A stretch of 64,000 nt of DNA from a virus. Taxonomy: Duplodnaviria; Caudoviricetes. Location of the stretch: the IMG/VR virus record IMGVR_UViG_3300032270_000543, positions 1-64,000 of that record; one strand, written 5' to 3'. Shown here piece by piece: positions 27,054 to 61,014 of this stretch (position 1 is the first letter of the stretch; each line of letters begins with the position of its first letter). The notes below the pieces were generated by a model. The model made no database searches, was not told the DNA's origin, and worked only from the letters and a program-made list of their open reading frames with translations. A program made the translations under genes and the position numbers.

Positions 27054-28529
27054 TTACGAAGCCACGCCGTGGAGGTTGTCCACGCGGAAGATACGATAGT
27101 AGACATTGGTACGAGCGGTGAGGCGACCCAGACCCTGAGTTGTGCCTTCCGCGAAGGGGTTCGCAACCATGCCGTAGCGGGTCTTGAACGCCATCTTGGG
27201 CTGGAAGGTATCAGTGGTCACAGCGCGCATCATCTGTAGCGGGACATAGGGGCAGTAGAACAGACCCGCATCATACGGGCTGGTTCCCTTATATCCAACG
27301 CAGACGAAGTTGGGAGCCGTGCTGGCGGTGCTGACATCGACATAGGGGTCAATGTAGACCTTGATCTTGCCGTTGAGCGTACCTGCGAAGGTGTTGCCCG
27401 TATCGTCAACATCAAGGCTGACATTCAGCGCAGGGCTGATGTTCAGGAAGCCACCCATTGCGAGGGCACTGGCAACATCTGCCGAGCAGATGATGAAGTT
27501 ACCCTTGCCACGACGAGTGTCCTTGGCGATCTGGTTGCACTCACGCTCAATCTGGAACATCAGACCACGGAACTTTTCCGCGCTCCAACGACCATCCGAG
27601 TCCTGAATGAGATCGTAGACACCACCGTAGACAGTACCAGCAGCAGCGGTTGTTAGACCACCAGTGACGGTACGGTAGTACAGGTCGTTCTGCTGTGCGC
27701 CGAGTTTAGCGGTGCGGTACACATTGCGGACAACTTCGCGGTTGATTTCAGCAAGGATTTCCGTGCTGAGAATGTTGGCGAGTTCTGTCTCAGCGTCAAG
27801 ACCGTGGATAGCCTTGAGATCCTGAGCCAGTTCGACCGAGTACGATGCAGCAAGCATACGGGTCGAAGCCTGAACGCCGACGCGCTCAATGCTGAATGCC
27901 ATTTCCTGAGGAGCGTTGCCTTCACCGTAGGAGGTGAGCAAGCCAGCACCTGTGGTCAGACCGCTGTTGCTGGTCGGATCAAGGTTTGTGCCTGCGTATC
28001 CGTAGAACGGATCAACACCCGTGTTTGGACCGAATCCAGCGGTGTTGCCGTAGGAGATACCACCTGCGGCAGTACCACCCGAAGCAAAGCCACTGGACGA
28101 AGGACCAGTCGAACCCGAGAAGGTAGCGGCTGCTTCGTTGTACAGGGCTTCGTTTCCAGCCTGACCAGCGTAACGGCTACGCATTGCGAAGATCAGACCT
28201 GTCGGAGCCGACATAGCCTGAACGCCGCAGATGTCATAAGCCATCAGGTTGGGCATAGCGCGACGAACCAACTGGATGAGAATTGGATCGTAGCCACGCA
28301 TTGCTGCGTTTTCGCCACCTGGAGCGAGTCCTGACATACCAGCACCGATGCCGTTGACAGGCGAAGCCTCAACGAGCATCTGCTCCTTGATAGCCTTCTC
28401 CTGATTCTCAAGCAGCGTAGCCAGTGTGGCACGCTTATGGGCATCCGCAATCGGAGCCATGTCCTTGTGATCAATGACGGGCTTCCACTTACGGATAGCC
28501 TGTTCTGTTAGAAACTTATTCTGTTCCAT
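27054..28529 (-). CDS. 23: major capsid protein gp23
   Basis: LLENQE, YDPILIQLVRRAMPNL, ELAQDLKAIHGLDAE.ELANILS.EI.AEINRE, FYCPYVPL and KTRYG motifs. Confidence 0.98.
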   Translation of the reverse strand: MEQNKFLTEQAIRKWKPVIDHKDMAPIADAHKRATLATLLENQEKAIKEQMLVEASPVNGIGAGMSGLAPGGENAAMRGYDPILIQLVRRAMPNLMAYDICGVQAMSAPTGLIFAMRSRYAGQAGNEALYNEAAATFSGSTGPSSSGFASGGTAAGGISYGNTAGFGPNTGVDPFYGYAGTNLDPTSNSGLTTGAGLLTSYGEGNAPQEMAFSIERVGVQASTRMLAASYSVELAQDLKAIHGLDAETELANILSTEILAEINREVVRNVYRTAKLGAQQNDLYYRTVTGGLTTAAAGTVYGGVYDLIQDSDGRWSAEKFRGLMFQIERECNQIAKDTRRGKGNFIICSADVASALAMGGFLNISPALNVSLDVDDTGNTFAGTLNGKIKVYIDPYVDVSTASTAPNFVCVGYKGTSPYDAGLFYCPYVPLQMMRAVTTDTFQPKMAFKTRYGMVANPFAEGTTQGLGRLTARTNVYYRIFRVDNLHGVAS

Positions 28530-28551
28530 TTTCCTACTCCTTGATTGTTAA

Positions 28552-28567
28552 CAGCCCACGCGGGCTG
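28552..28567 (-). promoter_or_regulatory. GC-rich hairpin in the gp22-gp23 intergenic leader
   Basis: CAGCCC-GCGT-GGGCTG just upstream of the AAGGAG RBS, with no U-tract; possible mRNA stabiliser or processing site. Confidence 0.4.
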
Positions 28568-28587
28568 AAAGAAACTGAATTTGAAGA

Positions 28588-29781
28588 TTACTCTTCCTTT
28601 TTGCTCATTGAGCGCACATACGCCTCAACGAGCGGGGACGCTTCGGTTGCCTCTTCGTAGGATTCCTCAAGGGACTCCTCCTCTGCGGTTTCCTCGGCAA
28701 CGCTTCCGATGCTTTCGATGTTCTCACGGAGAACACCGACCTTCTCGGCAAACTGCTCAACGGTGTCGAAGTCCAGGTCTTCTGCAAGACGACGGAGTTT
28801 TTCGACCTCTGTATCAGTTAGTCCTTCGGAAATCTCGCGGAAGACGATCTCGCACTTCAACTGCTCGACCTCCTCAACGAGTTCCATGTTCTTTTCAACC
28901 TGACTCTGTAGTTCACCGTCAAGGTTTTCGACCTCTTCAACGGTGGACTCAAACAGGTCCAACTTCTCTTCGGGAACCTCAATGTACGACTCGGCAAAGA
29001 GCGAACGGAGATTACCAATGAAGTTCTCGGTGATCTCGGTGCGGAGTCCCTGCTCAACAGCAAGGCGGTTCTCCTGCATCCACTCCTCAACCACATAGTT
29101 CAGGTAGTCGTCAATACGCTCAACGAGTTCTTCGGTGACAGCAACAGTGTGCTGCTCCAGCAGATCCTCGTACTGTGCTTGAACTTCTTCTTCAATCTGA
29201 CGAGTGCGCTCGTTGAGGTGAGCCTCAAACAGAGTAGCAGCCGAAGTCTTGAAGTCCTCGGAGAGTTCCTGACCACTGAACAGGGCGTCAATGTCTTCTT
29301 TGACAGCCTTGGGCTTCTCGACCTTGCCGTTGGCATCGCTCTTCTTAGCCTTGATGCTGCCCTGATTCTTGCCACTGGCATCGCCTGTTGGCGCAACGAT
29401 CTCTGCACCCTTGCCGTTGGCAGTCTGGTACAGTTTCTTGTCGGCGTAGTCGGACACGGCTTCTTCCACCTCGGTCTTGCCCTTCTTGCCGAACTTGCCC
29501 TTGAGGAAAGCAGGCATCTTCTTCTTGCCCTTGCTGTCCTCCTCTTCGGAGTCTTCTTCCTCGTCTTCGTCCTCGGACTCCTCGTCTTCGGACTCTTCGT
29601 CCTCCGACTCCTCTTCCTTGGCTTCTTCGATTTCTTCTTCGTGGAGTTCTTCCTCAGCGATGGCTTCCTCATCGGAGGTGTCCTCGCCCTCGGTGATCTC
29701 CTGCTCCTCGGCGTTCTCCGCAAGGAAGCCTTCGCCCAGGATTACCTTCTTGATGACATCTTCGATCTTTTCGTTAGCCAT
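28588..29781 (-). CDS. 22: prohead core scaffold gp22
   Basis: Highly acidic; LSEDFK..A..LFEA and IDDYLNYVVEEWM.EN.LAVE.GLR.EI.E.F motifs. Confidence 0.94.
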   Translation of the reverse strand: MANEKIEDVIKKVILGEGFLAENAEEQEITEGEDTSDEEAIAEEELHEEEIEEAKEEESEDEESEDEESEDEDEEEDSEEEDSKGKKKMPAFLKGKFGKKGKTEVEEAVSDYADKKLYQTANGKGAEIVAPTGDASGKNQGSIKAKKSDANGKVEKPKAVKEDIDALFSGQELSEDFKTSAATLFEAHLNERTRQIEEEVQAQYEDLLEQHTVAVTEELVERIDDYLNYVVEEWMQENRLAVEQGLRTEITENFIGNLRSLFAESYIEVPEEKLDLFESTVEEVENLDGELQSQVEKNMELVEEVEQLKCEIVFREISEGLTDTEVEKLRRLAEDLDFDTVEQFAEKVGVLRENIESIGSVAEETAEEESLEESYEEATEASPLVEAYVRSMSKKEE

Positions 29782-29805
29782 GACTGTTGATCTCCTTCTA
29801 TGAGA

Positions 29806-29812: not shown

Positions 29813-29817
29813 ACTCG

Positions 29818-30459: not shown

Positions 30460-31148
30460 TAGTCCTTGCCCGCCTTCTTGTTGTGCAGTTTCCAAGCAGT
30501 GGCGTACATGACGCTCTTGCCGCGCTTGCCGTACTGCTTGGCAAACGAAGCCTTGGTGTGCTTGGAGCCTGTCATCTTCTCCATGTCGGGAGGGGAAACT
30601 TCATCCAACTGCTCTGTTTCTTCCTTCACGGGTGTGATCTTGCCTACAACTTTGCCACCTTTGCCGTACAGTCGGGTGTTGTCGCCCTTCTCTTTGTAGT
30701 TTTTGTCGGCTACTTTAGCCAACTTCTTGTTAGCAGCCTTTGTATTCTTGAGACTGCCCTTCTTGCCCATTACCGAATTGTACCATTTATCGGCTGCGAC
30801 CTTTTGCTTCATATCCATTTCATCGGAACGCTCACGGGTCTGCGCCATCTCGTCCAGTTCGGCTTCTTCCTTCATCGCACCAGCGGGAACGCCCTTGCCC
30901 AGTTTAGCCTTGTAGCCTGCCTTCTTCACCGTATCCCGAGCAGCCTTGAACTTGTCTTCGCTTGCACCAGCGGGAACGCCAGTGTCGGGAGCAGTCTTGG
31001 CTTCGTTGAACACACCGTTAGCAACAGCAAAGCGAGCCTCGTCAAGAGCGAGTGATGCCTTGGCATAGAGTGACTTGAAGACCAATTCCTTGGCTTCGGC
31101 AAAACTCTTGTTCAACAGGGCTTTAGCAATCTGCTTGTTTGTGTCCAT
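30459..31148 (-). CDS. prohead core / internal head protein (gp67/68 position)
   Basis: Between portal and protease; Lys-rich segments separated by xxE sites; YATAWK C-terminal motif. Confidence 0.65.
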   Translation of the reverse strand: MDTNKQIAKALLNKSFAEAKELVFKSLYAKASLALDEARFAVANGVFNEAKTAPDTGVPAGASEDKFKAARDTVKKAGYKAKLGKGVPAGAMKEEAELDEMAQTRERSDEMDMKQKVAADKWYNSVMGKKGSLKNTKAANKKLAKVADKNYKEKGDNTRLYGKGGKVVGKITPVKEETEQLDEVSPPDMEKMTGSKHTKASFAKQYGKRGKSVMYATAWKLHNKKAGKD

Positions 31149-31342: not shown

Positions 31343-31349
31343 AATGACC

Positions 31350-33660: not shown

Positions 33661-35757
33661 TTAGCCGCCAACTTCGGTGAAACTTACGCCAGTCTTTGTG
33701 GCAATAAAGTTCAGCGAGATAAAGTTGATGCTACGGGTGGGCTTGACGAAAATATCGGCTACAAACTCATTGCGGTCGATTACTTCGCCAGTATTGTTGC
33801 TTTCATCGCAGACCACCTTGAAATCGGTGATACCACGGCGAGCGGTTACCGTCTTGAGGAACGGAGTAACCAAGTTCACGAACTGTGCGCGAGTGAACGC
33901 ATCGTTCTGCTCGAACAGGAAGAACTTGGAAGCCGTTGCAATTGCCTTTTCAAGTACGATGAAGAGGCGACGGACATTGATGCGGTCAAAAGCAGACGGC
34001 TTGGTCTGTGCAGTCTTGTCTCCGTAGAGGATGACTCCCTGACCAGGGAACGACACGACTGGATTCACCTGACGGCTGTAAAGTTCGTCGCGGTGAGCCT
34101 CTTGTGTGGCGTTGTAGGGCAGTTTGACCACATTCTTGATCTGACCACGGTTGAAACCAGCGGGGCTGAACCACGCTTCGTTGGTGAACTCTGTACGAGC
34201 CACCAGACCAGCGATGTCGGGGTTCAGGGGCATGACACGAACAATGTTGTTGTAGGTGTCAAGTTGCTGCTTCCATCCGCTGTCGATGACTGCGTAAGAC
34301 GAATTGATGTTGAGTGTGCTGTCGCGGAAAGTCTTGATGCTGTTCAAGGCTTCATACGGCAACTTATTGACAACATCGGTCTGCGCTGGCGAGATGAACG
34401 CCATGCAGTCCAAACGCTTCTCGCAGAGATTCTGAACAATCAGTTTGGTCAGAGTAGCGGAAGCATTGCCTGTTGGAAGCAGAGACACATCGTATGCGTC
34501 TGCATCGGCAAACTTGCTCCAACCATTGCTCCAACGCACCGAATCATCAGCAAGAGCGTCAGCAGAACCAGTGAGTCCAAGCGAGTTTACACCAAAACCA
34601 ACAGTGCTTGCTGCGGACAGTGGCGAACCAACCGAGGTCCAGTTGGTCTTGTCCGATGTAAAGGCTGTGTCAGCCTGAACATCCTGCGACAGTGCCCACA
34701 CATAGGTTGACTGATCGTTGATCACTGTGCGATAGTAGTTGCTGCTGCCATCGAACTTGCGAGCATCCGAAGCGCGCGACAGTGCCTCAAACTTCTCAAT
34801 CAGACCGTTTGCGGTGCCAGTCCACTTGCCGTCCTTGTCAAGAACAAGGACATTGATATTGTCACCACTTCCACCCTTGCTGTCAGCGTAGGCAGTTGTT
34901 GTGGCTGTGTTGCTGACATACTTGGCGTAAACGCTCTTGATGTTGAAGGTGTTTCCTGCCGCCTGTGCCTTGGGCAGCGGAGAAGACAGATTCAGACGGA
35001 AAGCAGCATAGGTTGTACCCCATGAAGCGGAAGCAGCGTTCCAACCAGTTGTAACACCGATGATATCAGAATATGTGCCTGTGGTGGCAGTTCCGAACGA
35101 AGCGTTGTAAGCAGCAGTTGTGCCTGGAACAGTGCCACTAGCCAACTGCACGCTGGCAACACTTGCCTGTGTTCCGTCTGTGAAGACAACATCATCTCCC
35201 ACAGCGAAGTATCCAGCAGCACCCGAGGTGCCTGCGTACATATCAATGAAGGTGGCTCCGAGAGAAGCAGCAACCGCCAACGAAGCACCAGTAATTCCTG
35301 TGCCGTTGGTGATTACAACCTTGATGCTGTTACCAAGATCGCCAGGATACTTGGAAGCAAACAGAACACCGTTGGTGGCAGGAGTCGATCCAAGCACGCC
35401 TGCGCTTGCGCCGAAATCGGTTTCGTTGTTGATGATGAGATTCAGACCGTTGGTGGCGGTAGTTCCGCTCTTGATAGCGTGGCTGTTGTATGCCGTGGCA
35501 CCAACAACGCGAACAACTTGCATATTGTTGCCGTAGGCAAGGAAGTTGCCAACAGAGAAGAAGTCCACATAGTTGTCGTTCTCTGGAGTTCCGAAGATTT
35601 TAGCCAGTTCGTTCTGGCTGGTGACGGTCACTACCTCGTTCACTGGTCCCCAGTGGAAGTAGCCTGCGTAACCACCAGGTGTGGTGGCAACCGCAGGAAC
35701 GATTGTGGTCAGGTCGATTTCTTTGATGCTTACGCCAGGGCTTACTCTAAATGCCAT
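33661..35757 (-). CDS. 18: tail sheath protein gp18
   Basis: SPGVSIKEIDLT, WFSPAGFNRG, GDKT...SAFDRINVRRLF and VCDESNNT..VIDRNEF motifs. Confidence 0.98.
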   Translation of the reverse strand: MAFRVSPGVSIKEIDLTTIVPAVATTPGGYAGYFHWGPVNEVVTVTSQNELAKIFGTPENDNYVDFFSVGNFLAYGNNMQVVRVVGATAYNSHAIKSGTTATNGLNLIINNETDFGASAGVLGSTPATNGVLFASKYPGDLGNSIKVVITNGTGITGASLAVAASLGATFIDMYAGTSGAAGYFAVGDDVVFTDGTQASVASVQLASGTVPGTTAAYNASFGTATTGTYSDIIGVTTGWNAASASWGTTYAAFRLNLSSPLPKAQAAGNTFNIKSVYAKYVSNTATTTAYADSKGGSGDNINVLVLDKDGKWTGTANGLIEKFEALSRASDARKFDGSSNYYRTVINDQSTYVWALSQDVQADTAFTSDKTNWTSVGSPLSAASTVGFGVNSLGLTGSADALADDSVRWSNGWSKFADADAYDVSLLPTGNASATLTKLIVQNLCEKRLDCMAFISPAQTDVVNKLPYEALNSIKTFRDSTLNINSSYAVIDSGWKQQLDTYNNIVRVMPLNPDIAGLVARTEFTNEAWFSPAGFNRGQIKNVVKLPYNATQEAHRDELYSRQVNPVVSFPGQGVILYGDKTAQTKPSAFDRINVRRLFIVLEKAIATASKFFLFEQNDAFTRAQFVNLVTPFLKTVTARRGITDFKVVCDESNNTGEVIDRNEFVADIFVKPTRSINFISLNFIATKTGVSFTEVGG

Positions 35758-35836: not shown

Positions 35837-37507
35837 TTAGAAACTCCACCCCATATCTAGGTTTTCTTGCTGTCCCATTTTCCATGCGGTGCCGTTTCCG
35901 TCAACAATATGCGTTTCGGATGAACCGTCATCCACAAAGCCAAACGGGGTCATTTCCTCTTCCAAAACCTTCATTTGATCCTCGTATAGATCCTTGCGGA
36001 TGTCGCTGCCAGTGATCTGTTTGAAATATGCCTGTGTAGTTAGCCATCCAAACAGCACCAGCGTCATCACCAAGTCATCGTGATGGTTTTCTTCAGCCTC
36101 GAACGAGTCGCCCTTTGCAACAAAGGAGCAGAACTCGTCTACGGTATTAAAGTCCTCAACAATTAGTTTGGTGTCTTCAATCAGATTTTTCAGAATGGAG
36201 CAGCCAATCCTCTTTACTGCCGTGGAGGTTTTTACGCCCTTCATGGACGAACCTTTTCCTCCAAAGCCTCCGTTCACCACCTGACCCTTACGACCCTGCA
36301 TTGACACATAGATCACATTGTCGTACTCCAATTCATCGTGCAGGATGTCTGCAACCTGACCGCCAATATCGTTCACCTCAATAAGGCAGTACGAATTGTT
36401 GTACTGCCGCAGTATGGGATAGATGGCATTGGGGTACAACATGGGCGGCATTTCATTATTTCGAAATGTAGCCACAACTTTGTACGGCATGGACGACACA
36501 TCAATCACCGAATACGCATGGTAGTCGAGTCCCTGTCCCCGCGCCGTGTCCACCACCGTGATGTATTTGTGGTTGGGAACGGGTTTGTGATACACCCGCA
36601 ATCCCTCACCATTCCAATATTCAGGAGTCTTATACACCAAACACTTGAGTTTTTCAGGATGCACAAGGGTGTGCATGGAGCCAAGAAACTCGCACTCAAA
36701 CTCAGTGCGGAACTGCTCTTCGCTAGTGTTTGCAATGGTCTGCTTTTTCCACTTTTCATCACGACCAGGCACATCGCTCCAATGCACCTCCATTGGTACA
36801 TAGTCATTTTTGCCTTCTTCACCAGGCTTCTTGTTGGCATTCACCCAGAAGCGGTAGAACATATTCAAGCCCTTGGGGGTCGAAATGATCGTGACCTTCG
36901 TGCTTTGACCGCTGGTGATGGTTGGATACACGGACGAGAAAAACTCTTCCGCAACATTCTGCGGAACATACGCAAACTCGTCAAGGAAGATGTAGTTGAA
37001 CGATCCACCACGCACAGCAGACGAAGATGTGGCAGACGCAAGAATCTTGGAGCCGTTCTCCAGTACGATTGATCCCTTGTTCCACTCCACCACGCCCTGC
37101 TGCAACCACATGGGCAGATACTCGTAGGCTAACTGCAAACGCCCAAGCAGTTCGCGGGCTGTGGTCAACTTGTTCGCAAGAATCGCAACACTCATGCTCT
37201 GATTGAACAGAACATAGTGGAGAAGATACGCGATGATCGTGGTGGATTTACCTGTCTGACGGGGCAGTTTGCCGATCACGAAACGGTTTTCGTGAATGGT
37301 GCGGATCATGTTCTCCTGATAGTCATACGGCTCAAACGGCACCAAGCCCTTGTCAAGCGACACGATCTTCACATAGTTCTTGATGAAGTACAGGGGATCT
37401 TGTGAGCATTTCACATATTCCTCAATCTGCTCGGGAGAGAAGTTGACATTCACCCCCGCTGCCTTGAGGTTGGAGTTTCCCAAATATTTGGTGCTGCGAT
37501 TACTCAT
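35837..37507 (-). CDS. 17: terminase large subunit gp17
   Basis: PRQTGKST, IFLDEFA, ISTPKG, EFECEF and HDDLVM motifs; uninterrupted (no intein or intron). Confidence 0.98.
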   Translation of the reverse strand: MSNRSTKYLGNSNLKAAGVNVNFSPEQIEEYVKCSQDPLYFIKNYVKIVSLDKGLVPFEPYDYQENMIRTIHENRFVIGKLPRQTGKSTTIIAYLLHYVLFNQSMSVAILANKLTTARELLGRLQLAYEYLPMWLQQGVVEWNKGSIVLENGSKILASATSSSAVRGGSFNYIFLDEFAYVPQNVAEEFFSSVYPTITSGQSTKVTIISTPKGLNMFYRFWVNANKKPGEEGKNDYVPMEVHWSDVPGRDEKWKKQTIANTSEEQFRTEFECEFLGSMHTLVHPEKLKCLVYKTPEYWNGEGLRVYHKPVPNHKYITVVDTARGQGLDYHAYSVIDVSSMPYKVVATFRNNEMPPMLYPNAIYPILRQYNNSYCLIEVNDIGGQVADILHDELEYDNVIYVSMQGRKGQVVNGGFGGKGSSMKGVKTSTAVKRIGCSILKNLIEDTKLIVEDFNTVDEFCSFVAKGDSFEAEENHHDDLVMTLVLFGWLTTQAYFKQITGSDIRKDLYEDQMKVLEEEMTPFGFVDDGSSETHIVDGNGTAWKMGQQENLDMGWSF

Positions 37508-38016: not shown

Positions 38017-38889
38017 TCAAAGATTCCAATCAACAGTGATGCCTCCAGATGCCATTCCTGATGCGTATGTGCTTCCGCCTGCTGGCTTGTCGTTCTGATA
38101 CACCTTGGCATACGGCTCGTAATTGTTCATGTTGGAGTTGGCACCGCTCGGACCACTGATGCCGTCCGTGATCAACACATAGTTTGGAGTATCAGTGGTA
38201 TTTCCTGGCTGATACGAAATTCCACCGAGGAAGTTGTCTCCAAACACATCGTAGTTCCACAGTCCTGCCTGCATGACACGAATTTCTTTGTAGTTCTTGG
38301 TGGGACCAAACAAGTAGGTCTTCATCGTGAAGTTCAAAGTAAAGATGATGCTTCGTCTAGTTGTGAAGTCGCCTTCGTAGTCTTCTTCCGTTGAAACGGA
38401 GTTCAAGTAGATAGGAACATCAACCTTGGTGTTAATGGAATCAAAGTTCACCGTGACAACAAACTCAGGAGAAAAGTATGGAAGAATCTGCTCAACAATA
38501 CGCAATCCATCATCCATGTTACGAACATAGATGTATAGTCCAAAGTCAATGTTGTATGGAACTTCGGCGTAAGTGTAATCCACCTTGGATGGATTTGATG
38601 TTGTGGGGCGAACAACATGACGAGCAAGCGAGTTTCTTTTTCTTGACGGATCGTAATTGTATCCCGTGATCTCAAAAGCCATGCGAGGTAACACGATCTG
38701 ATTGGGATTGTTCAGATATGGATCGCCTGCAAGACGCACCTTGTATTTTTCTTTAGGGGAATATGCAAGGGGAACAAGAAACTGCTTTGTGCCATCGCTT
38801 TCGATCTTGTCAATGTATAGCGAGTTGAACAGCGATCCGAACGCTACAACCATCTTGCGAATTGTGCCATTGTAGAAGTTCGTGAACAT
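38017..38889 (-). CDS. 15: tail sheath stabiliser / terminator gp15
   Basis: FY...IRK.VVAFG.LFN, VPLAY.PKEK, LPRMAFEI and IVEQILPYF.P motifs. Confidence 0.95.
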   Translation of the reverse strand: MFTNFYNGTIRKMVVAFGSLFNSLYIDKIESDGTKQFLVPLAYSPKEKYKVRLAGDPYLNNPNQIVLPRMAFEITGYNYDPSRKRNSLARHVVRPTTSNPSKVDYTYAEVPYNIDFGLYIYVRNMDDGLRIVEQILPYFSPEFVVTVNFDSINTKVDVPIYLNSVSTEEDYEGDFTTRRSIIFTLNFTMKTYLFGPTKNYKEIRVMQAGLWNYDVFGDNFLGGISYQPGNTTDTPNYVLITDGISGPSGANSNMNNYEPYAKVYQNDKPAGGSTYASGMASGGITVDWNL

Positions 38890-50777: not shown

Positions 50778-53700
50778 TTACAGATAGAAACTGATCGTCC
50801 TGACATTTTTCAATGCAGGAGTTTCATAGTAAGTAGCAGAAGAGCCGTTCTCAGACCACATATCAACCTTGACCTGATAAGACTTGAACTCCTTGTTGGC
50901 ATCGTAGAAACGATATACTGCCTCACGGAAGTCTAGTTCCGATGTACTGGTGAAAGACGCATTTTTGCGATCAAGAGCAGTCCACGGCTTCGTGAAGATA
51001 TCGCTCTCTCCCGTCTGAGAACAACGGAAGTATACTGCAATCTGTGCTGTACTGGGAAGATTTGCGTCAAGGAACACCTGCAATCCATTCGAAACAACAT
51101 CGGGATCAAGTGTTACCACCCGTGAAACATACGATGACGGCGTAGTATCATTCAGACGCATCTCAATGCCTACCCCATACAGGGTCTGCGTATCCAAGAT
51201 CGGACTGACTGCCGTGCTTGCACCGTTCGACAGCGTATAACGCAACTGCGGAGAGTTCTCAAGCATATTCCTCAAATACAGGTTCTCATTGTTTGCAATG
51301 GCTGTATTTTCTACTCTACGGGTGATTCTGCATCCAACGGGGCTGACTTCGGATGCCGCAAACTTGATTATTTGCTTTGCCGAGCAGTTGGTTGTGCTGA
51401 AGGTAACCGTATTGTTGTTGCCGATGAATACGCAGCGTTCCATCGTGAACATCAGGTCGGTGTTGTTGTCCTGAACTGCTGGTCCGATTCCCTGCGGGAA
51501 ATACAGGGTTCCGACACGCTGATTGTTTCCACCGCGTCCCGCAATAGCATCACCGTTTGCAGTTGTGTTTATTGAACTGCCAACAGCATAGAGCGAATAC
51601 AGATTGCTGTTTGCAATAATGCAGATGGCGTACTCACCCGACTCAAGGAACACAGGGCTGCTGAACTTGAACACCGTTCCCGATGGAGAGTTTGCATCAG
51701 CATTCACAGCAGAAGCCTGTTTGGTGACTGTGCTGAACGGAACAACAACGGACGGTGAAGGATAGCCATTCACGGTTGGACGAATCTGAACCGTGACAGG
51801 CAGGCTACTGTCCTTTGTGGCAAAGAAGAGAGTAAGGCTCTTCAGGAATATGCCTTCGGGATTAGCCTTGCGGTCAACAAAGAATGTCTGCGCCAGTGGA
51901 TCGCACCACGCTGAATTTTCAAGAACATCATACGCCAGATCCACATTGAATGGATCCTTGACGATTCCTTCGCTACCAACAGTACGGCGGCGCAAAACAG
52001 GAGGACGAGTCGATACACATCCAGAATCACGCTGATTAAGAATTCCCGTGCAGTAGTACACCACCTCGGCAGCAGTGGTAGCATTCTCCGCAGAAGCAGA
52101 ATCGCTGATACGGACAACTTTCTCGCCTGCAAGAAACTGACCCGCAGGAATGCTGAAAGTTACTCCAGACACCGTTCCCGTAAAATCTGTAGTGATTCCG
52201 CTTATGACTGTATCACCATCAAAGTAAACAGATACACCAGTGTTGGGCTTTAGACCGTGGGCAGTAACTCCAATCACAGACGAGGGAACATACGGCACAA
52301 CGCTGCGATCAACCACCCTAGATCCAACAACAGTCTTGATGCGATTCTTCATTCGTGCTTGACGAATAAAGTTGCTGGTCTTCTGATTTAGTGTATCGAC
52401 AGAACGGCTAGATCCAACATGGACGCTTCCCGAATTGATATTAGGAATCACCGAAGAGTTGTTTGAATGGGGAACCTCGAATGTTCTCTTGTTGATTTCG
52501 TCTTGCTCTTCGGGTGTCTGCGGAATACCCGTCCACAGACTTTCCCAATCGTTCCATTGTGTGCCAAATCCGCGGGCATTGTTTGCATTGGACGAAAGCC
52601 AGTTGTCATTCTCCGATAGAGAGTTTGTCTTCACAACAGGACGGTACTCAAGATCAAAGAACGGAGACACCGATGTAGACAACTGCATGAATCCAAGCCA
52701 GTTCAAAGTATTGGATGGATTGACCTTTACTGTTTTGGTGTACTGCTTGTTTTCGATATAGGTAACACCGCTGTAGTTCAGAGTAATAATACCATCTGCT
52801 GAAAGAGTAGTGCCAGACAGTTCGGTAATGGTGAGGGTAGGCTTGTACTCTGTGAAGAACGGACGCAATTCTCCCCACTCATAATCAACAGAGCAGATAT
52901 TCTCACCAGAACTTACATCGGCAACAGAATGACCAAAGAATTCATCAGAGTAAACGGATGTCTTCAGGGGTTCTGTTGCAGCAGAAGATGTCTTTAGTGA
53001 ACGGGCTTCAATCTCTGCTTCGCTCAACGACAACTTGGTGAATACTTCAATATCATCCACACGCTTCTGTATCTTACCGATATCAGCCATCGTAAAGCGT
53101 TGAGTATCAACCTGTGTAACGCTTACATTAGATGGGCTATGGGTATATGCGGGAACAGAGAGTGTGCATATCGTAAGTGCATCTTCCACATCAGCGGGAG
53201 TTGATGGAGATAGGTCGGGAGTTCCCGAAACCACGAAGAACTGCGCCGAATTATCGGTAGGATTGTTACGCAGACACACCTTGTCGATTCGCGGCAGATA
53301 GTGATCATACGAAACTTCGGTGGCTGTGAATTCACCAATGGAGAATTCAGAGGTTCCGTATGGCTTCATAACAAACGACGAATCAGGATGTACATGGCGG
53401 AAATCCAAGCAGTTCGCCAAAGATACAGTGTTTCCTGTTCGTGTATTCGTAAAGAGCGGAATAGCACCATACGAAATGTCGGGATACGACAACTTTCCTA
53501 CGAATGGAGCAGACGCAAGACCACGATGTTCGAAATACGAATACGAAACCGTGAGCGTATCTTCCGCATCCCACGAAGCAACTTCAGCAACATACGATGG
53601 CTTGACAACCAATCGTCCGTATGTGTAATAAGCCTCGCGCTGACCGTCATCGTACTCAAAGTAATCGGTGACATCCGATGTTTCTGCGGTGACCGCGTTT

Positions 53701-55694
53701 CTGATGGTTACGCTGCTAACGGAGAACACATCGACGCGAGACAGTTCAAAAATGCTTCGTCCGTTTTCAGAAATCTTGTCGCTGACAAGGATGTTTTCTT
53801 CTGGAGCAATAACCAATTGCTTCCATCTGTAGTAACCAGTGCTGTCCTGAAGATTGCTTTGATCGTAGACAATTGGCATTGTCACGCGGATTCCGCCTTC
53901 GGTGAATCCCGCAAGACGATTGTCTGCATTGTTTGTTATATTGAGTGTTACACTGCTACCATCTGTCGTTCCTTGAGCGGTGACAAATGCAGAATCAAGT
54001 TGCAGAGCAAGTCCATCGGAGTTGACTAGTTGAATTTCGGATATCACAGAAGAGATATCGCGGTTCAGAGGAAAGCGATATACCGTTCCTGTTTCAGCCT
54101 TCAGAGTTTCAGAAAACTCATTGATGGTAAGCGTAATTGTCATTACGCTATTGCCGTAAGTGAAGAAATCTGTCAGGTCATCGCTTGTTGCCTTGCCTGT
54201 AAACTTCAAGTTCTTGATAGCGTTAACGGCATACGATGGCTTGAGTTCAAACACCAAACTCTGATTTGCCGTAGACACTCCAGCAGAGGTCACGGTTGCC
54301 TTTCCAAGTATGGTTCCATCACCAACAGATTTAATGGTTCCGATGTTGCCTACCGCAACCGCTCCCGAAACTCCATACAGGTACAGATTGTACTGATATC
54401 CACTGGTTGAACCAGACGGTATTGCTCCGTGAACAAAACCAGTAGCAGTCCGAGTTCCTGCGTTATTGATGAATTCGATTGCAGCAGCACCACCGTTTAC
54501 CGTAGTGATTCCGCTGCCGAATGTAGTTCCGTAATCAGTGGCATTTCCGATTGTGACTCCATAGATGTTTCCAACGGAAAAATCCAAGAAAATGTTGTTC
54601 TCGTCTACCGTGGTTCGTGCCTTGTCCACGGAAAGTGTCTGTGGATACGCAGACTCAAGTTCATGCCCAAGCACATAGGCTTTGCCTGTTCCAAGCACGA
54701 TGTTGAACATTGTTTCATCGGACGCGCTCTTGATACTTACATCGAAAGGTCGAACCGTATAAGAACCCGATTCATCATATGTACGGCGAGCAAGAGTGTT
54801 TTCAATCTCTCCATAGGTGATCCGTTCGACCTTCTTGGTGATCGTGCCGTCTTCAAAACGGATAAGTTCAAGAAAATCAGTGGGAGTTTCGGTTAGATCA
54901 GCCTGTGCGAGTGTGAGTTCAATCTTGTAGCGGTCAGCACCAGGCGCATTGTAGTTGTACGAACCAATTGCAGTATCACGGAGAGTATTGTCTTCTTGAT
55001 CGGTAACATAGTTGCGATACAGAGAGAAGCCAACCTTTTTATTCAACTCGGCAAAATCCGTACCAAACTGAAAGTCGCGGTACTTTCCTGTGGTGTTGCT
55101 GTAGTACGGAGAGAAAGTCTGATCGCTTGTTGTAACGAAAAAACCATCAACATAGAACACACCACCGCCAACGGTGATAAGTTTGCACTTTCCGCTGTTC
55201 CACGAGTTTCCGTTTTCAGTACCAAACACGCCACCTACTAGCAGAGTTCCGTCTGCAAGAGTAATCGTAAATTGGTTGTCTGCAAAAGCAGTTCCTGAAG
55301 TATAATCCACAACCAGCACAAGTTTGTTGTCTGTTGCAGAATCTGGATTCACATAATGAACAACTTTCGCGCTGATAGCCGAATCAGAGGTCTTTAGGAT
55401 CGCGCCCATCAGCGCAGAATAATCGTAAATACCGTAAGCATTCAGTGCATCCACAGACATCATAATGAACGAGGTGGTGCGAATGGAGATGTTTCCACCG
55501 ACAACCCGCGATCCGTCCTTGAACAGATTGTCACCAATCTTTGAAATTTGATTCTGAAGAATCGTCTGTGCCTGTGTCAATTCACGGGCTTGCAAAGCGT
55601 AGCCAGGCTTGAACAACACCCGCAGAAACGCTTTCTGTGCGTCAAAATCGTCATAGTACGGGCTGATGTTGAAAATGCTAGGATCGTATGCCAT
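50778..55694 (-). CDS. large baseplate/structural protein (VrlC/DUF4815-like)
   Basis: FNISPYYDDF...VLFKPG..LQARELTQ.Q.ILQNQ, APGADR.KI, LARRTYDESGSY, YLPRIDK, FTM.DIG....R and DPLAQTF motifs. Confidence 0.88.
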   Translation of the reverse strand: MAYDPSIFNISPYYDDFDAQKAFLRVLFKPGYALQARELTQAQTILQNQISKIGDNLFKDGSRVVGGNISIRTTSFIMMSVDALNAYGIYDYSALMGAILKTSDSAISAKVVHYVNPDSATDNKLVLVVDYTSGTAFADNQFTITLADGTLLVGGVFGTENGNSWNSGKCKLITVGGGVFYVDGFFVTTSDQTFSPYYSNTTGKYRDFQFGTDFAELNKKVGFSLYRNYVTDQEDNTLRDTAIGSYNYNAPGADRYKIELTLAQADLTETPTDFLELIRFEDGTITKKVERITYGEIENTLARRTYDESGSYTVRPFDVSIKSASDETMFNIVLGTGKAYVLGHELESAYPQTLSVDKARTTVDENNIFLDFSVGNIYGVTIGNATDYGTTFGSGITTVNGGAAAIEFINNAGTRTATGFVHGAIPSGSTSGYQYNLYLYGVSGAVAVGNIGTIKSVGDGTILGKATVTSAGVSTANQSLVFELKPSYAVNAIKNLKFTGKATSDDLTDFFTYGNSVMTITLTINEFSETLKAETGTVYRFPLNRDISSVISEIQLVNSDGLALQLDSAFVTAQGTTDGSSVTLNITNNADNRLAGFTEGGIRVTMPIVYDQSNLQDSTGYYRWKQLVIAPEENILVSDKISENGRSIFELSRVDVFSVSSVTIRNAVTAETSDVTDYFEYDDGQREAYYTYGRLVVKPSYVAEVASWDAEDTLTVSYSYFEHRGLASAPFVGKLSYPDISYGAIPLFTNTRTGNTVSLANCLDFRHVHPDSSFVMKPYGTSEFSIGEFTATEVSYDHYLPRIDKVCLRNNPTDNSAQFFVVSGTPDLSPSTPADVEDALTICTLSVPAYTHSPSNVSVTQVDTQRFTMADIGKIQKRVDDIEVFTKLSLSEAEIEARSLKTSSAATEPLKTSVYSDEFFGHSVADVSSGENICSVDYEWGELRPFFTEYKPTLTITELSGTTLSADGIITLNYSGVTYIENKQYTKTVKVNPSNTLNWLGFMQLSTSVSPFFDLEYRPVVKTNSLSENDNWLSSNANNARGFGTQWNDWESLWTGIPQTPEEQDEINKRTFEVPHSNNSSVIPNINSGSVHVGSSRSVDTLNQKTSNFIRQARMKNRIKTVVGSRVVDRSVVPYVPSSVIGVTAHGLKPNTGVSVYFDGDTVISGITTDFTGTVSGVTFSIPAGQFLAGEKVVRISDSASAENATTAAEVVYYCTGILNQRDSGCVSTRPPVLRRRTVGSEGIVKDPFNVDLAYDVLENSAWCDPLAQTFFVDRKANPEGIFLKSLTLFFATKDSSLPVTVQIRPTVNGYPSPSVVVPFSTVTKQASAVNADANSPSGTVFKFSSPVFLESGEYAICIIANSNLYSLYAVGSSINTTANGDAIAGRGGNNQRVGTLYFPQGIGPAVQDNNTDLMFTMERCVFIGNNNTVTFSTTNCSAKQIIKFAASEVSPVGCRITRRVENTAIANNENLYLRNMLENSPQLRYTLSNGASTAVSPILDTQTLYGVGIEMRLNDTTPSSYVSRVVTLDPDVVSNGLQVFLDANLPSTAQIAVYFRCSQTGESDIFTKPWTALDRKNASFTSTSELDFREAVYRFYDANKEFKSYQVKVDMWSENGSSATYYETPALKNVRTISFYL

Positions 55695-55704: not shown

Positions 55705-58107
55705 TCAGAAGCCTAGACGGAGCCTGAACTCTTCCTTTTGACCAGGAATTCTATTGATGGCTCGTATATTGTCTATGTATAACACCTCGCCCGAGTTCCT
55801 GTCGATCTCTGGTTTCACCGAATCGTATGCAATATACGCTCCGACCGTGGCTCCAACAGCAAAGTTGGTGCCCAAAGTTGCACCCGTGGAACCACGACGA
55901 TTGTCTTGAACTGTCTTGAATACCCCAAGGACATCCGTCAGCCACAAGTTTCCATAAGATGCGTTGACATAATCCCACTGGTATACGATTCCAGATGCGT
56001 AGTCAGAAGAGTAACTTCCACTGACTCCCTGCTGAATAAAGTCTCCATTCGAGAAAGAAGTCCGTGTCAGAGGAGATGCAGTGACATCAACCGCGCCAGT
56101 GATGCCACTGACACTAGTGGTAAGCATCAGTTTGTGCAGACCACAATAGGATGGGCTGTTGCTTTCGTCAAAATACGGCTCACTTACCTCAAGAACTTTG
56201 AACATCTTATTGTTCGTTCCTTCGGTGTACATGGTGACCGCACCATCTACTTCGTTTAGCACCCAAACATATTCACCATATTTTGGTTTGATGGCTATGA
56301 TGTCGGCTGTGGCTCCAGACTCAACGCCAGTCAAATAGTTGGATGTGCCTGTGACAAAACCCCCATCAAGATACCTGACTTCCATAGTATATCCACTTGA
56401 CGATAGCACCTGTCCCGTGGAAATAATGTCGTATGAAAAGGAAACTCCGCTTGGCAGTGTTGTACCAGCCAGAATTGTCTGCTTGACTGTTTCTCCAATA
56501 TGATACGGAAATCTAGGTGCAGACTCGAAAGACAAAACATAATCATTCGGACGATCCAGATAAGTAACGAACCCACCAGAATTATTAAGCACTTTCACCG
56601 TTACTCGGGTCTGATCTTCAAGAGTCGAGGGCTTATTGGAGGAAACAACCTTGCAAGTAGTGATGGTTTCGGTTCCAACAATCAGATTGGTGCCGCTAGT
56701 CTTGAATATCGTTCCCTGTATGAGTGATGGGCTGCTTCCCTCGTAACTCATAATGATGTCTCTGTAATACGGAGTATTTTTACCAGCAATTGAACCAGAG
56801 CCATCGCTCAACACAGGATTTTTGATTATTCCAAACTGACGATACGATCCACCCGTAATGAATTTCTCTGAGTCGTACTCAGACAGATTGATGATGAGCA
56901 GAATATCCTTTGCATTCAGTTCTCGCAGAATATTGCTGCCGTGTCCTCCTTTGGGAGACAACACAGTGGTCAGTGTAGGTGCTGTTGTACCAACCTTGAC
57001 AGGGGTTCCAACCGCTGCATCTGCTCGGGAATAGTTGTGCCCACCATCAAACAGATCGACTCCAATAATGCTGTCTCCCGTACTTCCTCCCATTATTGGG
57101 AAGGCATAAGCACCAGATCCATCACCGTATATTTTGATGTACGGAATGATCTCAACGGACGCAAAGGACTGATCTCCCTGACCAGGCGTGACACGGAATC
57201 CCTGAACATCATCGGTGAGATAGAATGTTGCGCGGGGCTGACCAAACGCAGTCTCGTATATTGCATTGGTGATGATTGCGTAGTTACCAATTTCGGCAGG
57301 ATCTTGGTTACTGTTATCGACACGCACCACATAACCAATATACTGAGAAATGCTGGTTGATTGAATCTTGCCAGCACCACCGAAAGCATTTGGGTCTGTG
57401 ACCGTAATCGAACGGATGCCGCCCCCAACATCAGAATTGAATTCAGCAACACGAATGGTTGGACCGCTTCCGCTATTCGTGATCGTGTACGGATACTGCC
57501 CGTTTGTCAAGGTAGTATCAATTCGAGTAATCGAACCGTTTACTGCCTCTAGTTGGGTTGTGTATTGATTTACAGTTTCGGTGTCCGTGCTTGTTGTGAC
57601 AAAATCAACAGGAATGTAGTCCGTCAGATCATAAGGAAGATCGGTTTCCTTTATCGTTCCGAGATACTTCCAAACATAACCTTCCCCCGTCTTGAACGGA
57701 GACACGATGGTTTGATTGGGCTTGTCGGTTGACTTGATGCCACCGTTGTTGGACAAGCACTTGTAGATGTTGTTGTCTTCTGTTACCACATAAAAGAGAA
57801 CGGGATTGCTTTCAGAAAACAGATCAATGGTATCATCGTACTGGCTATACACCGTTCCAGATGTCCAAGTATGACGGGGAAGCGCGAACAGTATGTTCTG
57901 CGGGTTCAATTTCTTATATGCAATAATGTTGTTCAGAACGGTGTATTCGCTCTTTACAGAATCGACATATGGATCTGGAGAGTTGGGATCAGTCCACTCC
58001 GTTGTCTTGGCGACAAAGAAGAAATACTGGTTGCTGTTACGCTCCAGTTCAGCCAAGAAGTTCTCGGCATACGACCGCTTGATTGATGCTTTTAGGTAAC
58101 TAGCCAT
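55705..58107 (-). CDS. 8: baseplate wedge protein gp8 (enlarged)
   Basis: W.SGT.Y..YD, FYVVT....IYKCL.NNGG, GYVWKYL, SP.GGHG...EL, RQFGIIKNP and SGEVLYIDN motifs. Confidence 0.88.
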   Translation of the reverse strand: MASYLKASIKRSYAENFLAELERNSNQYFFFVAKTTEWTDPNSPDPYVDSVKSEYTVLNNIIAYKKLNPQNILFALPRHTWTSGTVYSQYDDTIDLFSESNPVLFYVVTEDNNIYKCLSNNGGIKSTDKPNQTIVSPFKTGEGYVWKYLGTIKETDLPYDLTDYIPVDFVTTSTDTETVNQYTTQLEAVNGSITRIDTTLTNGQYPYTITNSGSGPTIRVAEFNSDVGGGIRSITVTDPNAFGGAGKIQSTSISQYIGYVVRVDNSNQDPAEIGNYAIITNAIYETAFGQPRATFYLTDDVQGFRVTPGQGDQSFASVEIIPYIKIYGDGSGAYAFPIMGGSTGDSIIGVDLFDGGHNYSRADAAVGTPVKVGTTAPTLTTVLSPKGGHGSNILRELNAKDILLIINLSEYDSEKFITGGSYRQFGIIKNPVLSDGSGSIAGKNTPYYRDIIMSYEGSSPSLIQGTIFKTSGTNLIVGTETITTCKVVSSNKPSTLEDQTRVTVKVLNNSGGFVTYLDRPNDYVLSFESAPRFPYHIGETVKQTILAGTTLPSGVSFSYDIISTGQVLSSSGYTMEVRYLDGGFVTGTSNYLTGVESGATADIIAIKPKYGEYVWVLNEVDGAVTMYTEGTNNKMFKVLEVSEPYFDESNSPSYCGLHKLMLTTSVSGITGAVDVTASPLTRTSFSNGDFIQQGVSGSYSSDYASGIVYQWDYVNASYGNLWLTDVLGVFKTVQDNRRGSTGATLGTNFAVGATVGAYIAYDSVKPEIDRNSGEVLYIDNIRAINRIPGQKEEFRLRLGF

Positions 58108-58119
58108 TTATGTCCTCTA

Positions 58120-61014
58120 TCATACGCTTGTGTATGTATCGCCTGTCAACACTGTTCCATTCGCAAGCACAGTTCCTTCAGACTTGTATATGAGTATCGG
58201 CATATTGAAGAAGTTGGTCAGTGTGATTCCCGAGAATGAAATTCCGCTTGGAATGGTTGTCAGATTTTTTGTATTTGGGTGGTGCTGTATTGCCCAATAT
58301 GTCACTCCGAACGGATATGTGCTTGGATGTGCCTGTTTGTATGAATCTGGTAGAGCGGCGTCTAGTTTGTATTTACGCGACAAGTAACCATATACATTCT
58401 TGCGCTCTTGATCGTTCAACTTACGATTGAACACAATCACTTCATAAAGAACTCCGCGGAATCCATAAGAAGGATTCGCTGTGACACCTCTAACCCACGA
58501 TGCTGTACCAAAAACATTGTCAGAAGACACACCACTCAGATGATATGCTCCAAATCTTCCAATATTGATGGCAGCATCACACAAAGGAATACGAGAATCC
58601 GAATACGGCTCGTCATTTGCAGAAACACGAATTCCCGTAGACCGCGATTGATTGATTGCGGGATCTCCATTTGCAAAAGCGTAAAGACCGTCTTTCTCTC
58701 TCGCTACTTCTCCGACCACCACGCCCGTACTTGCTCCAGACACATGAGGATCATAGGAAATGCTTACTCGGTTAAAAGTATAATCAATAGGAATGATTCC
58801 ACTGTAATCAACCGCTCCCCAAGGGCGCATTCCGATCATTCCCGTTCCAGTTGGATATCTCTTTGTGCCGTCACTCGCAATAGTGTAAAATTTGGATGTC
58901 TGCTGCGCGGGATTTGCGTCAACAGAGTTCCACGAACGAGAGAATATGATGTAGTCAGAAAAACTCTTGAAGTAACTGTCTGTGAACTTCTTGTTCGAAG
59001 ACACCAATCCAAGACCGTAATACGGTGAATCAACAACTGGTCGATAGACCATGATGACATCCATATCGGCAGTAAAGGTGATTCCATTTTTCAGATAGAA
59101 GTGGCGACCAACAAGAAGTTTTTCACCCGTAGAACCTGGAACAAAGGTTAGAGATGTGCCAAGAGTGTATCCCGAACGAAACTCGTATCCTGAAGTTCTG
59201 TAAACTCCTGCTTCATTCCATACAGTTTGTGGACCACAAATGACTCCACCGTCAAAAGATATTCCTGTGGCTCCAACAACTCCATTATCGTTTATGACCA
59301 AAGTTGGGCGCAGTTGATCCACAGTAACACCAGCATATGCCCCATTGGTTGTCCATCTATCCCATGTTGGAGGAACAGCATGATTTCCGCTAGGAGAAGC
59401 ATCTAGCCAAAAATCCATGCTTGCACCGTTGGCTACCGATCCGCACACACCAATATTTTCTGGCTTGAGCCACAATACAAGCCCACGCATACCCTGTGGA
59501 CTCAAACGACTTTCGTTTCCGCTGTACCACGAAGTGGTGCTACCCAGTGGGGCACCGATAGGATTGTGAGCAGTTCGTCCACCCTCGGGAACATAGCAAT
59601 ATGTGTATCCCAGTGATGTTCCAACGAACAGAGTTCCTAGAGATGTGGTCTTTCCACTTGGTCCTGCTTGGAGAGTGCTGCCGATAAACGGATTGTAGCC
59701 TAGCGGATACAGATCGCCTGTTGCTCCCAACCAATATCCGCTAGAGGTGACTCCGTTTGCACGCAGATCAAGAGTTGTTCCAAATTTATACGGCGTGTAC
59801 TTACCAACAATCGGCGTTTCTTTCTCCGTCATTTGCGACGAAGACACTGGTGTGTTTTGAAGTCCGCGTTTGACTAGAATGCTTCCAAACATACGCATAC
59901 CAGCAGGGTGAGCAATGGTTTTCAGAACCGAAAAGTATCGGTCAAAAGAAACCTCGCTCTTCAACTCATACGAAAAATCCTGATAGTAGTTTCCGTCTTG
60001 GATGTGCTTGTTAGACGAAACCTTGCCATGATTTCCTTGAAAGTATCCAGGATAGTTTGTAATGGCAGTCTTCACGCCAATGATCTTCGCGGTCTGTTTT
60101 CCGTTTGCAGAAATGATTGTGAGTACAAGACTGTCGGCAAAATACCGCAAGCCTGAGTTGATGATCGACACTTTTTTGATAGAGCCACCATATCCAGTCT
60201 GTTCTATCTTTGCTTTGAAGCCTGCTCCTGTTGTGTCAATCACAGTTGCGTACTCTCCAACTGAATATCCGTTGCCTGGCAATTCAATAAAGAGTTCACC
60301 AAGCACAGAATACGCATATTCGGTGTAGTCGCCTTCTGCTGTTTGTATAGTAACATTCTGCTCAGGCAAAAACTCACCGCTGATGTTCGTCAAAAAGAAT
60401 TCGGTGACAGGCAATCCATTTGCTGTATACTGAACCACGGAATCTACGAATGCAGAAGCCCGCGTTTCGGAGCCAGCATTCTGAACAATCTGTCCGCCCT
60501 TTGCTACAAACAGGTTCATTCCGTTCAGGCTTGTGGTCTTGATGGATCGTGATTCTATCCAACGACCATCAGAAGCCTTGATGATGTCTTCTTTTGGATA
60601 GTAGAAGTTGACATCACTATCATACAGCACACGGAAAACGAACTCATATGCACCTTCGGTTCCTTTGTTTCCATAGAACTCGCGTATCTTCTTCAAGACA
60701 GTTTTTTCATTTGGTGTTTCGCCATCGGTGTTGGTGGCAAAGAAACTCGGAAAACCATCAAGATATGTGTGTCTAAAGTGAGAATAGAACTGATTCAAGT
60801 TCTCGTCCACATCGGTCACACTGTCCATGTGAGCCAAAACATAACCTGAGTTATCCTTCTGCTCTAGCCACTCATAATACGCTTTGATGAAAGCAATCAA
60901 CTTTCTGTATTCAGATCGCATGAACAGCGGAAACTGCTCTTCGATGAAAGGAGACAGTATACGCTCAAGAGCGTCCGTACTGTTGTTAGTGACAATCTCC
61001 TTTATGTCTGCCAT
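58120..61014 (-). CDS. baseplate wedge gp7-like protein with a C-terminal LamG-like domain
   Basis: FP.F.......F.KAYYEWLE, IREFY..KGT, IQD..YYQDFSY and HPAGM.MFG; C-terminal LVLWL...W.D.S..GNHA...F.G.LYEVIVFNRKL...ER..V.GYL..KY. Confidence 0.8.
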   Translation of the reverse strand: MADIKEIVTNNSTDALERILSPFIEEQFPLFMRSEYRKLIAFIKAYYEWLEQKDNSGYVLAHMDSVTDVDENLNQFYSHFRHTYLDGFPSFFATNTDGETPNEKTVLKKIREFYGNKGTEGAYEFVFRVLYDSDVNFYYPKEDIIKASDGRWIESRSIKTTSLNGMNLFVAKGGQIVQNAGSETRASAFVDSVVQYTANGLPVTEFFLTNISGEFLPEQNVTIQTAEGDYTEYAYSVLGELFIELPGNGYSVGEYATVIDTTGAGFKAKIEQTGYGGSIKKVSIINSGLRYFADSLVLTIISANGKQTAKIIGVKTAITNYPGYFQGNHGKVSSNKHIQDGNYYQDFSYELKSEVSFDRYFSVLKTIAHPAGMRMFGSILVKRGLQNTPVSSSQMTEKETPIVGKYTPYKFGTTLDLRANGVTSSGYWLGATGDLYPLGYNPFIGSTLQAGPSGKTTSLGTLFVGTSLGYTYCYVPEGGRTAHNPIGAPLGSTTSWYSGNESRLSPQGMRGLVLWLKPENIGVCGSVANGASMDFWLDASPSGNHAVPPTWDRWTTNGAYAGVTVDQLRPTLVINDNGVVGATGISFDGGVICGPQTVWNEAGVYRTSGYEFRSGYTLGTSLTFVPGSTGEKLLVGRHFYLKNGITFTADMDVIMVYRPVVDSPYYGLGLVSSNKKFTDSYFKSFSDYIIFSRSWNSVDANPAQQTSKFYTIASDGTKRYPTGTGMIGMRPWGAVDYSGIIPIDYTFNRVSISYDPHVSGASTGVVVGEVAREKDGLYAFANGDPAINQSRSTGIRVSANDEPYSDSRIPLCDAAINIGRFGAYHLSGVSSDNVFGTASWVRGVTANPSYGFRGVLYEVIVFNRKLNDQERKNVYGYLSRKYKLDAALPDSYKQAHPSTYPFGVTYWAIQHHPNTKNLTTIPSGISFSGITLTNFFNMPILIYKSEGTVLANGTVLTGDTYTSV

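Follow-up and report, generated by a model that had tools for sequence, protein, structure and literature searches.

Virion genes and the G-x-[S/T] tripeptide

The first 64 kb of the 149,886-bp viral record IMGVR_UViG_3300032270_000543 (referred to here as the window) derive from a T4-like myovirus and carry every gene on the minus strand, among them a long run of virion genes whose products are dense in the tripeptide G-x-[S/T], in which a glycine is followed two residues later (offset +2) by serine or threonine. It had been proposed in an earlier note on this DNA that the tripeptide is a sequon, i.e. the acceptor signal of an O-glycosyltransferase, selected on exposed proteins so as to give a glycan coat from capsid to baseplate. 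The analysis presented here indicates that the composition of the outer virion proteins is the main source of the dense G-x-[S/T], and that the small excess remaining at +2 does not yet show that the tripeptide marks sites of sugar attachment, because it also occurs in cytoplasmic enzymes.

Within the window, gp6, the gp7-like, gp8-like, tail-collar-domain and LamG-type proteins were named by PHROG and Pfam searches, and gp13-gp15, gp16/17 and gp19-gp22 were assigned by gene order against cyanophage S-SSM7 and T4. Between the gp23 protein and its cyanomyovirus counterpart the identity is about 55%, and hundreds of relatives of the tail sheath protein gp18 are found in metagenomes at 64-76% identity, some of them on contigs of more than 100 kb; judged from these matches, the phage therefore belongs to a large uncultured clade, known from metagenomes only.

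Motif counts were obtained for a virion set of 23 proteins (12,044 amino acids, aa) and a non-virion set of 35 proteins, and were compared with null models made at the protein level by shuffling residues over whole proteins or locally within blocks of 40, 20 and 10 aa. In the virion set, Gly is paired with Ser or Thr 229 times at +1, 251 times at +2, 187 times at +3 and 193 times at +4 and, in the other direction, 225 times at -1 and 191 times at -2. Relative to the shuffles, the +2 count stands at 1.30 for whole proteins (z 4.9), at 1.27 and 1.26 for 40- and 20-aa blocks and at 1.24 for 10-aa blocks (z 4.2), the +1 and -1 counts are raised to 1.11-1.19, and the remaining offsets lie at 0.88-1.06 (+3 at 0.93-0.98, +4 at 0.96-1.01 and -2 at about 1.0). 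As the +2 ratio holds under 10-aa local shuffles, the coupling is not merely local clustering of Gly, Ser and Thr; it is genuine, directional and offset-specific, but small. The comparison with adjacent offsets, on which the earlier note had made its proposal depend, thus favours it with regard to +3 (1.24-1.30 against 0.93-0.98) and barely does so with regard to +1 (251 against 229).

Composition by itself predicts 191 of the 251 virion sites (the sum of the per-protein expectations), or about three quarters, and the excess at +2 amounts to some 50-60 sites. Site density is 20.8 per 1000 aa in the virion set versus 8.1 in the non-virion set, so that the contrast between structural and non-structural proteins is real at 2.6-fold, but a 2.4-fold contrast is expected from composition alone (8.9% versus 5.7% Gly and 17.4% versus 11.4% Ser plus Thr), and the difference in density is therefore almost entirely compositional. 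High contents of Gly and of Ser plus Thr are usual in the beta-rich domains of baseplates, fibres and sheath surfaces.

The numbers that had been counted by hand are confirmed, with 21 sites in the LamG protein (against about 20), 25 in the C-terminal ~560 aa of the gp7-like protein and five in gp46; copies are present at the places named in gp18 (20), gp23 (11), gp15 (eight) and gp14 (four), and the internal head proteins are indeed poor in the motif (gp20 one, gp21 two, gp22 two). The strongest single case of an excess over the count expected from composition is the tail sheath protein gp18 (33661-35757, 698 aa; PF04984/PF17482 on its cluster), with 20 sites versus 10.8 expected, 14 of them within aa 86-297, a part that is variable in an alignment of clade relatives, S-SSM7 and T4 and that we take, from T4 gp18, to correspond to outward-facing domains. 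The major capsid protein gp23 (27054-28529, 491 aa) has 11 sites versus 7.4 expected, five of which lie at aa 139-170, within a loop rich in Gly, Ser and Thr; the corresponding loop of S-SSM7 gp23 is likewise G/S/T-rich. This gp23 also carries, at about aa 279-303, an insertion of some 20 residues with G-G-L-T-T that is absent in the gp23 of S-SSM7 and T4. The gp15-like tail completion protein (38017-38889, 290 aa) has eight sites versus 3.2 expected, all but one in its C-terminal 95 aa. Further excesses are found in the LamG/ConA-like protein (40846-42687, 613 aa; PF13385, E 2.4e-11), with 14.4 sites expected, in the gp7-like baseplate wedge protein (58120-61014, 964 aa), whose 28 sites compare with 17.7 expected, and in a fibre-like protein with 13.6% Gly (47915-50581, 888 aa; 34 sites versus 24.8). 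Three large proteins behave differently: an outer tail protein of 1034 aa (42703-45807) shows no excess (25 versus 24.7), and a 1638-aa structural protein (50778-55694, phrog_358; 28 versus 23.4) and the gp8-like wedge protein (55705-58107, phrog_438; 18 versus 15.4) show little or none.

With regard to local context, 64 sites were read out; their middle position holds V or I at 18 sites, S or T at 17, one of A, L, M and W at 12 and a charged residue at only four, which is a strand-like pattern, and the hydroxyl residue is Thr in 39 and Ser in 25. In gp18, both the Gly and the Ser/Thr are kept across the clade among variable neighbours at G154-x-T, G167-x-S/T and G142-N-S, and among 27 clade sequences only four of its 20 sites reach at least 90% conservation of both residues. 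An AlphaFold model of gp18, built from 27 close relatives, is confident only at aa 145-280 (mean predicted local distance difference test score, pLDDT, 38.8 overall), and in that part the sites lie at loop-to-strand junctions: G142-N-S precedes strand 145-150, G154 precedes strand 155-160, G167-A-T precedes strand 170-173 and T270 opens strand 270-274.

No collagen-like runs of G-x-y triplets occur in the virion translations that were read, and the virion genes contain a single tandem repeat, an acidic one in gp22. This repeat, in the scaffold gene at 29537-29629, consists of tandem 15-, 21- and 30-nucleotide units read as a Glu/Asp-rich run. The virion genes of the window also include gp6 (61016-62839) and the tail-collar-domain protein (45828-47930).

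Non-virion proteins and the outgroup phages

The pooled non-virion set, with 71 sites observed, has a +2 ratio of 1.20-1.26 (z about 2), and enrichment is accordingly not confined to exposed virion proteins. The 23 proteins encoded at 2-15928, all the sugar enzymes among them, contain 36 sites versus 36.0 expected, and the 12 proteins of replication and nucleotide metabolism at 15889-26984 contain 35 versus 20.9. This replication-module excess comes mostly from five proteins encoded within 19667-25991, namely gp46 (five versus 2.6), gp47 (five versus 2.1), UvsW (seven versus 3.9), a dCMP deaminase (five versus 2.1) and a protein of 273 aa (five versus 1.3), which together have 27 sites versus 12.0 expected, a sum from which a site-free 230-aa open reading frame (ORF) in the same interval (22437-23129) is excluded. 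The dCMP deaminase is encoded at 25413-25991, between uvsW and uvsY, and was recognised by its match to phrog_174 (E 6e-26), which rules out a tail-protein identity for this gene. In addition, the large terminase gp17 (35837-37507), which presumably, as in T4, acts in the cytoplasm and is no part of the finished virion, has nine sites versus 5.2 expected, the Walker A G-K-S among them. Some of the sites in cytoplasmic enzymes thus belong to catalytic motifs, such as this Walker A triplet and a G-I-S read as helicase motif V.

Selection for the motif on exposed proteins, which the earlier note had invoked, is not supported by these counts: since cytoplasmic enzymes are equally or more enriched and three outer proteins of the largest class are not, the distribution is unlike that of selection acting on exposed proteins. 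A reading of the +2 bias as a general property of proteins is in turn weakened, because the excess among the non-structural proteins is limited to the replication module, and also because the glycan-block enzymes stand at 1.00 and T4 and S-SSM7 are without a +2 excess.

These two phages, in which no homologue of the candidate glycosyltransferase (GT2-TPR, described below) was found at E <= 0.01, served as outgroups. Counts were taken from matches to GGN(4/7/10)WC in their virion regions on the plus strand, in the frame of annotated genes and filtered by hand; the resulting lists cover Ser and Thr coded by WCN only, over limited ranges, and may contain a few arithmetic slips, and by-eye counts of gp18 agree with the filtered lists (16/11/12 versus 14/9/12). 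At +2, +3 and +4, respectively, T4 yields 34/43/40 from gp53 to gp11 and 7/10/7 in gp18 (by eye), and S-SSM7 yields 43/44/47 from gp13 to gp22 and 95/142/99 in gp7, SSSM7_102 and gp8. Pooled, the outgroups give 179/239/193, compared with 251/187/193 in this phage, and by these hand counts there is no +2 excess in the virion proteins of T4 and S-SSM7 (0.93 +/- 0.10 relative to +4). A 2x2 test of +2 against +4 separates the outgroups from this phage at z about 2.4; with T4 gp5 left out, and before the S-SSM7 baseplate counts were added, +2 against +3 and +4 gave z about 1.8. The expectation that relatives without the enzyme would be without the excess is therefore borne out in direction, but in two hand-counted genomes and at z about 2.4 only. 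All three clade relatives that were checked carry GT2-TPR, so that co-occurrence of motif and enzyme offers no contrast within the clade, and the outgroup sample is n=2.

At +3, other Gly-to-Ser/Thr registers, equally position-specific and stronger, stand out in the outgroups. In T4 gp5 there are 18 in-frame G-x-x-[ST], mostly at a spacing of 24 nucleotides, as in its beta-helix, and S-SSM7 gp7 (L083:3651-12656), a baseplate protein of 3001 aa, has 93 in-frame G-x-x-[S/T], many of which are G-I-x-T. Such +3 Gly...Thr registers, in phages without GT2-TPR, are plainly structural, an ordinary product of beta-structure repeats.

The candidate glycosyltransferase and the glycan block

The enzyme that the sequon hypothesis requires would be GT2-TPR, encoded at 5378-6586. 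Its N-terminal GT2 (GT-A) domain is recognised by PF00535 (E 1.3e-10, residues 8-93), and at residues 182-238 TPR_17 (25.2 bits) and TPR_14 (23.8 bits) exceed their Pfam cut-offs; other TPR models stay below theirs, and designed TPR proteins also match. Among solved structures, which in the PDB are a sparse sample, the best matches of the glycosyltransferase domain are GmaR (E 1.5e-7), 7msk (4.8e-5) and SunS (2.5e-3). GmaR and SunS modify proteins or peptides, and its matches give GT2-TPR the appearance of a protein glycosyltransferase. Each of the three long relatives searched encodes it at 79-84% identity (G001:C1:54918-56147, G002:C1:32902-34107 and G003:C1:42565-43689), compared with only 64-68% for gp18, and this difference suggests strong purifying selection on the enzyme. 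Homologues in named or isolated phages are few, the Tunturiibacter phage Tunturi_5 having one at 37.5% identity (PP885688.1 37077-38126), and several records of huge phages of 630-735 kb (LR756501.1, LR745206.1) contain others. Tunturi_5 is a jumbo phage of Acidobacteria.

The remainder of the glycan block (6606-15457) encodes a GalE-like epimerase, a UDP-galactopyranose mutase, a DUF3431 protein, a nucleotidyltransferase, a HAD protein, a second GT2 and others. The heptamer CTAAATA occurs nine times in the window versus 3.2 expected, always on the coding strand (at 5410, 15063, 15492, 24317, 29806, 31172, 33651, 35814 and 40559, all minus), and is likely to be the core of a late promoter. It precedes gp13, gp18, gp19, gp22 and the gene at 31148, and two copies (15492-15498 and 15063-15069) stand at the head of the glycan block. 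The canonical late promoter of T4, TATAAATA, was not found in the 64-kb window. A further copy at 5410-5416 is situated at the 3' end of the GT2-TPR gene, ahead of two small ORFs. One of these, directly downstream of GT2-TPR (5240-5377), encodes 45 aa and is strongly basic; the other (4819-5241, phrog_1084) encodes a protein of 140 aa with 14% Gly, 24% Ser plus Thr and a long G/S/T loop, and is a candidate for either a small structural or decoration component of the virion or an acceptor dedicated to GT2-TPR.

A family search detected no member of the ThyA/dCMP-hydroxymethylase family in the genome, and thus lends no support to DNA glycosylation as the role of the glycan block. On the strength of the enzyme and its setting, late protein glycosylation by this phage, and glycosylation of its virion, appear plausible.

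Weighing of the explanations and comparison with known systems

The best reading of these data, to which a probability of about 0.55 is assigned, combines composition with a local habit of turn glycines and strand starts. The residual coupling of some 50-60 sites would most likely reflect this structural habit rather than a recognition signal: the Gly would close a turn, the next residue, often aliphatic or beta-branched, would face inward, and the Ser or Thr would open or cap the following beta-strand, so that the motif would have no function of its own. The conserved GT2-TPR might still glycosylate the virion, and the tripeptide statistics would be silent on where. Several observations weigh against this explanation. 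A strand-start habit would be expected to raise +2 in T4 and S-SSM7 as well, in which 179 sites are seen at +2 and 193 at +4; same-face periodicity of beta-strands would raise +4 too, an offset that is flat in this phage (0.96-1.01); the excess is spread over unrelated proteins, with no tandem repeats behind it; several gp18 positions keep Gly and Ser/Thr in the clade while their neighbours vary; the enzymes at 2-15928, by meeting their expectation exactly, speak against a uniform genome-wide baseline of 1.25; and the gp18 model, from which the strand junctions were read, is poor over most of its length.

That G-x-[S/T] is all or part of the acceptor context of GT2-TPR, selected on virion proteins to give a glycan coat, seems unlikely. 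The +2-specific excess that outlasts local shuffling is in keeping with it, as are its absence from T4 and S-SSM7 together with the enzyme, the proximity of the glycosyltransferase domain to GmaR, 7msk and SunS among solved structures, the closer conservation of GT2-TPR than of gp18 in the three relatives, the occurrence of CTAAATA at the start of the glycan block as well as before gp13, gp18, gp19 and gp22, the O-glycosylation of Thr in G-x-T triplets of Bacillus BclA, and the lack of any protein of the ThyA/dCMP-hydroxymethylase family, which would have hinted at glycosylated DNA. On the other hand, the effect is just 1.25-1.3-fold and accompanied by raised +1 and -1 counts, the excess is matched or surpassed in the cytoplasmic gp17, gp46, gp47, UvsW and dCMP deaminase and is missing from three of the largest outer proteins, 16 of the 20 gp18 sites fall short of 90% conservation of both residues, the motif was picked after the sequences had been read, and the hand-counted outgroup contrast is modest (z about 2.4, or about 1.8 without T4 gp5). 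The fuller version of this idea is slightly less probable still; here the clade would coat its virion, from the capsid loop to the baseplate, with a galactofuranose-containing O-glycan, a conserved, late, GmaR/SunS-like GT2-TPR would favour Ser or Thr at offset +2 from a Gly in a turn, and this preference would have left the +2 excess as its evolutionary footprint. A virion glycosylated without a strict sequon, on flexible G/S/T-rich loops or tails such as the gp23 loop at aa 139-170, the C-terminal 95 aa of gp15 and the 140-aa protein beside the glycosyltransferase, is doubtful, yet the least so of the alternatives, and would make G-x-[S/T] a low-complexity by-product. It draws on the same evidence from the enzyme, and also on the concentration of G/S/T-rich stretches in variable and probably exposed parts, on the late-type box ahead of the G/S/T-rich 140-aa protein immediately downstream of GT2-TPR and on its resemblance to mycobacteriophages, in which glycans are reported for the C-termini of capsid and tail-tube proteins (PMC12619734); it has to contend with a +2 coupling that outlasts 10-aa shuffles and hence is not just low-complexity clustering, with the similarly G/S/T-rich gp23 loop of S-SSM7, a phage without GT2-TPR, and with the possibility that the glycan block acts on the host or another target instead. 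It is more improbable than any of these that the +2 excess is an effect of selection or chance, or of an oligonucleotide bias in the DNA of this genome, without meaning at the protein level. The post hoc choice of the motif would fit such an origin, and an excess shared with replication enzymes of the same genome and missing from two other genomes is what a genome-specific bias would give, but z values of 4.2-4.9 withstand correction for some 1600 choices of residue pair and offset, the glycan-block enzymes of the same genome are without excess, and the shuffles were made at the protein level.

Taken together, the proposal of the earlier note is partly supported: its counts are right and its statistics partly so, and the sequon interpretation is not established. 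A true sequon would be the first sequence-readable glycosylation code of a tailed phage and would imply a glycan shield on a T4-type virion, with a bearing on host recognition, stability and evasion of immunity or defence, and metagenomes could then be searched for the motif. For now, the result serves chiefly as a caution, in that the density of such a motif on G/S/T-rich structural proteins should be judged against composition, adjacent offsets, cytoplasmic proteins and outgroup phages. The better lead is the enzyme, a late-type, clade-conserved GT2-TPR of apparently protein-modifying type accompanied by a predicted UDP-galactofuranose pathway, and the tripeptide is the weaker one.

Glycosylation of the virion of a comparable kind has, to our knowledge, not been shown for T4-like phages. 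Several known systems share features with the present one. The Listeria flagellin O-GlcNAc transferase GmaR and enzymes of the SunS/ThuS type have an N-terminal GT2 domain and provide the best solved-structure matches, and GmaR has the same GT2-plus-TPR layout as the phage protein; these matches are weak, covering about 90 residues at E 1.5e-7 to 4e-3, and we know of no G-x-S/T consensus described for GmaR. In Bacillus BclA, the Thr of collagen-like G-x-T (GPT) repeats is O-glycosylated, so that there, too, the glycosylated residue lies two positions after a Gly, but in long tandem G-x-y arrays, of which none were seen in the virion genes of the window. In mycobacteriophages, capsid and tail-tube subunits are reported to bear glycans at their C-termini (Freeman et al. 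2023, as cited in PMC12619734), and the decoration of capsid and tail proteins is ascribed, as a proposal, to phage glycosyltransferases encoded next to or among late genes; these phages differ in being siphoviruses of Actinobacteria with C-terminal glycans, and the citing passage in PMC12619734 makes no mention of a G-x-S/T sequon. The beta-helix of T4 gp5 and the repeats of S-SSM7 gp7 likewise couple a Gly to a downstream Ser or Thr in a position-specific manner, with no glycosyltransferase involved, but at +3 and in periodic repeats within one protein, unlike the +2 sites of this phage, which are scattered over unrelated proteins. Finally, the defined bacterial sequons, N-x-S/T and the D-S/T-[A/I/L/V/M/T] of Bacteroidetes, are also short motifs with a hydroxyl residue, and have been set by mapped glycans and for exported proteins only, whereas the tripeptide described here is over-represented in cytoplasmic enzymes as well.

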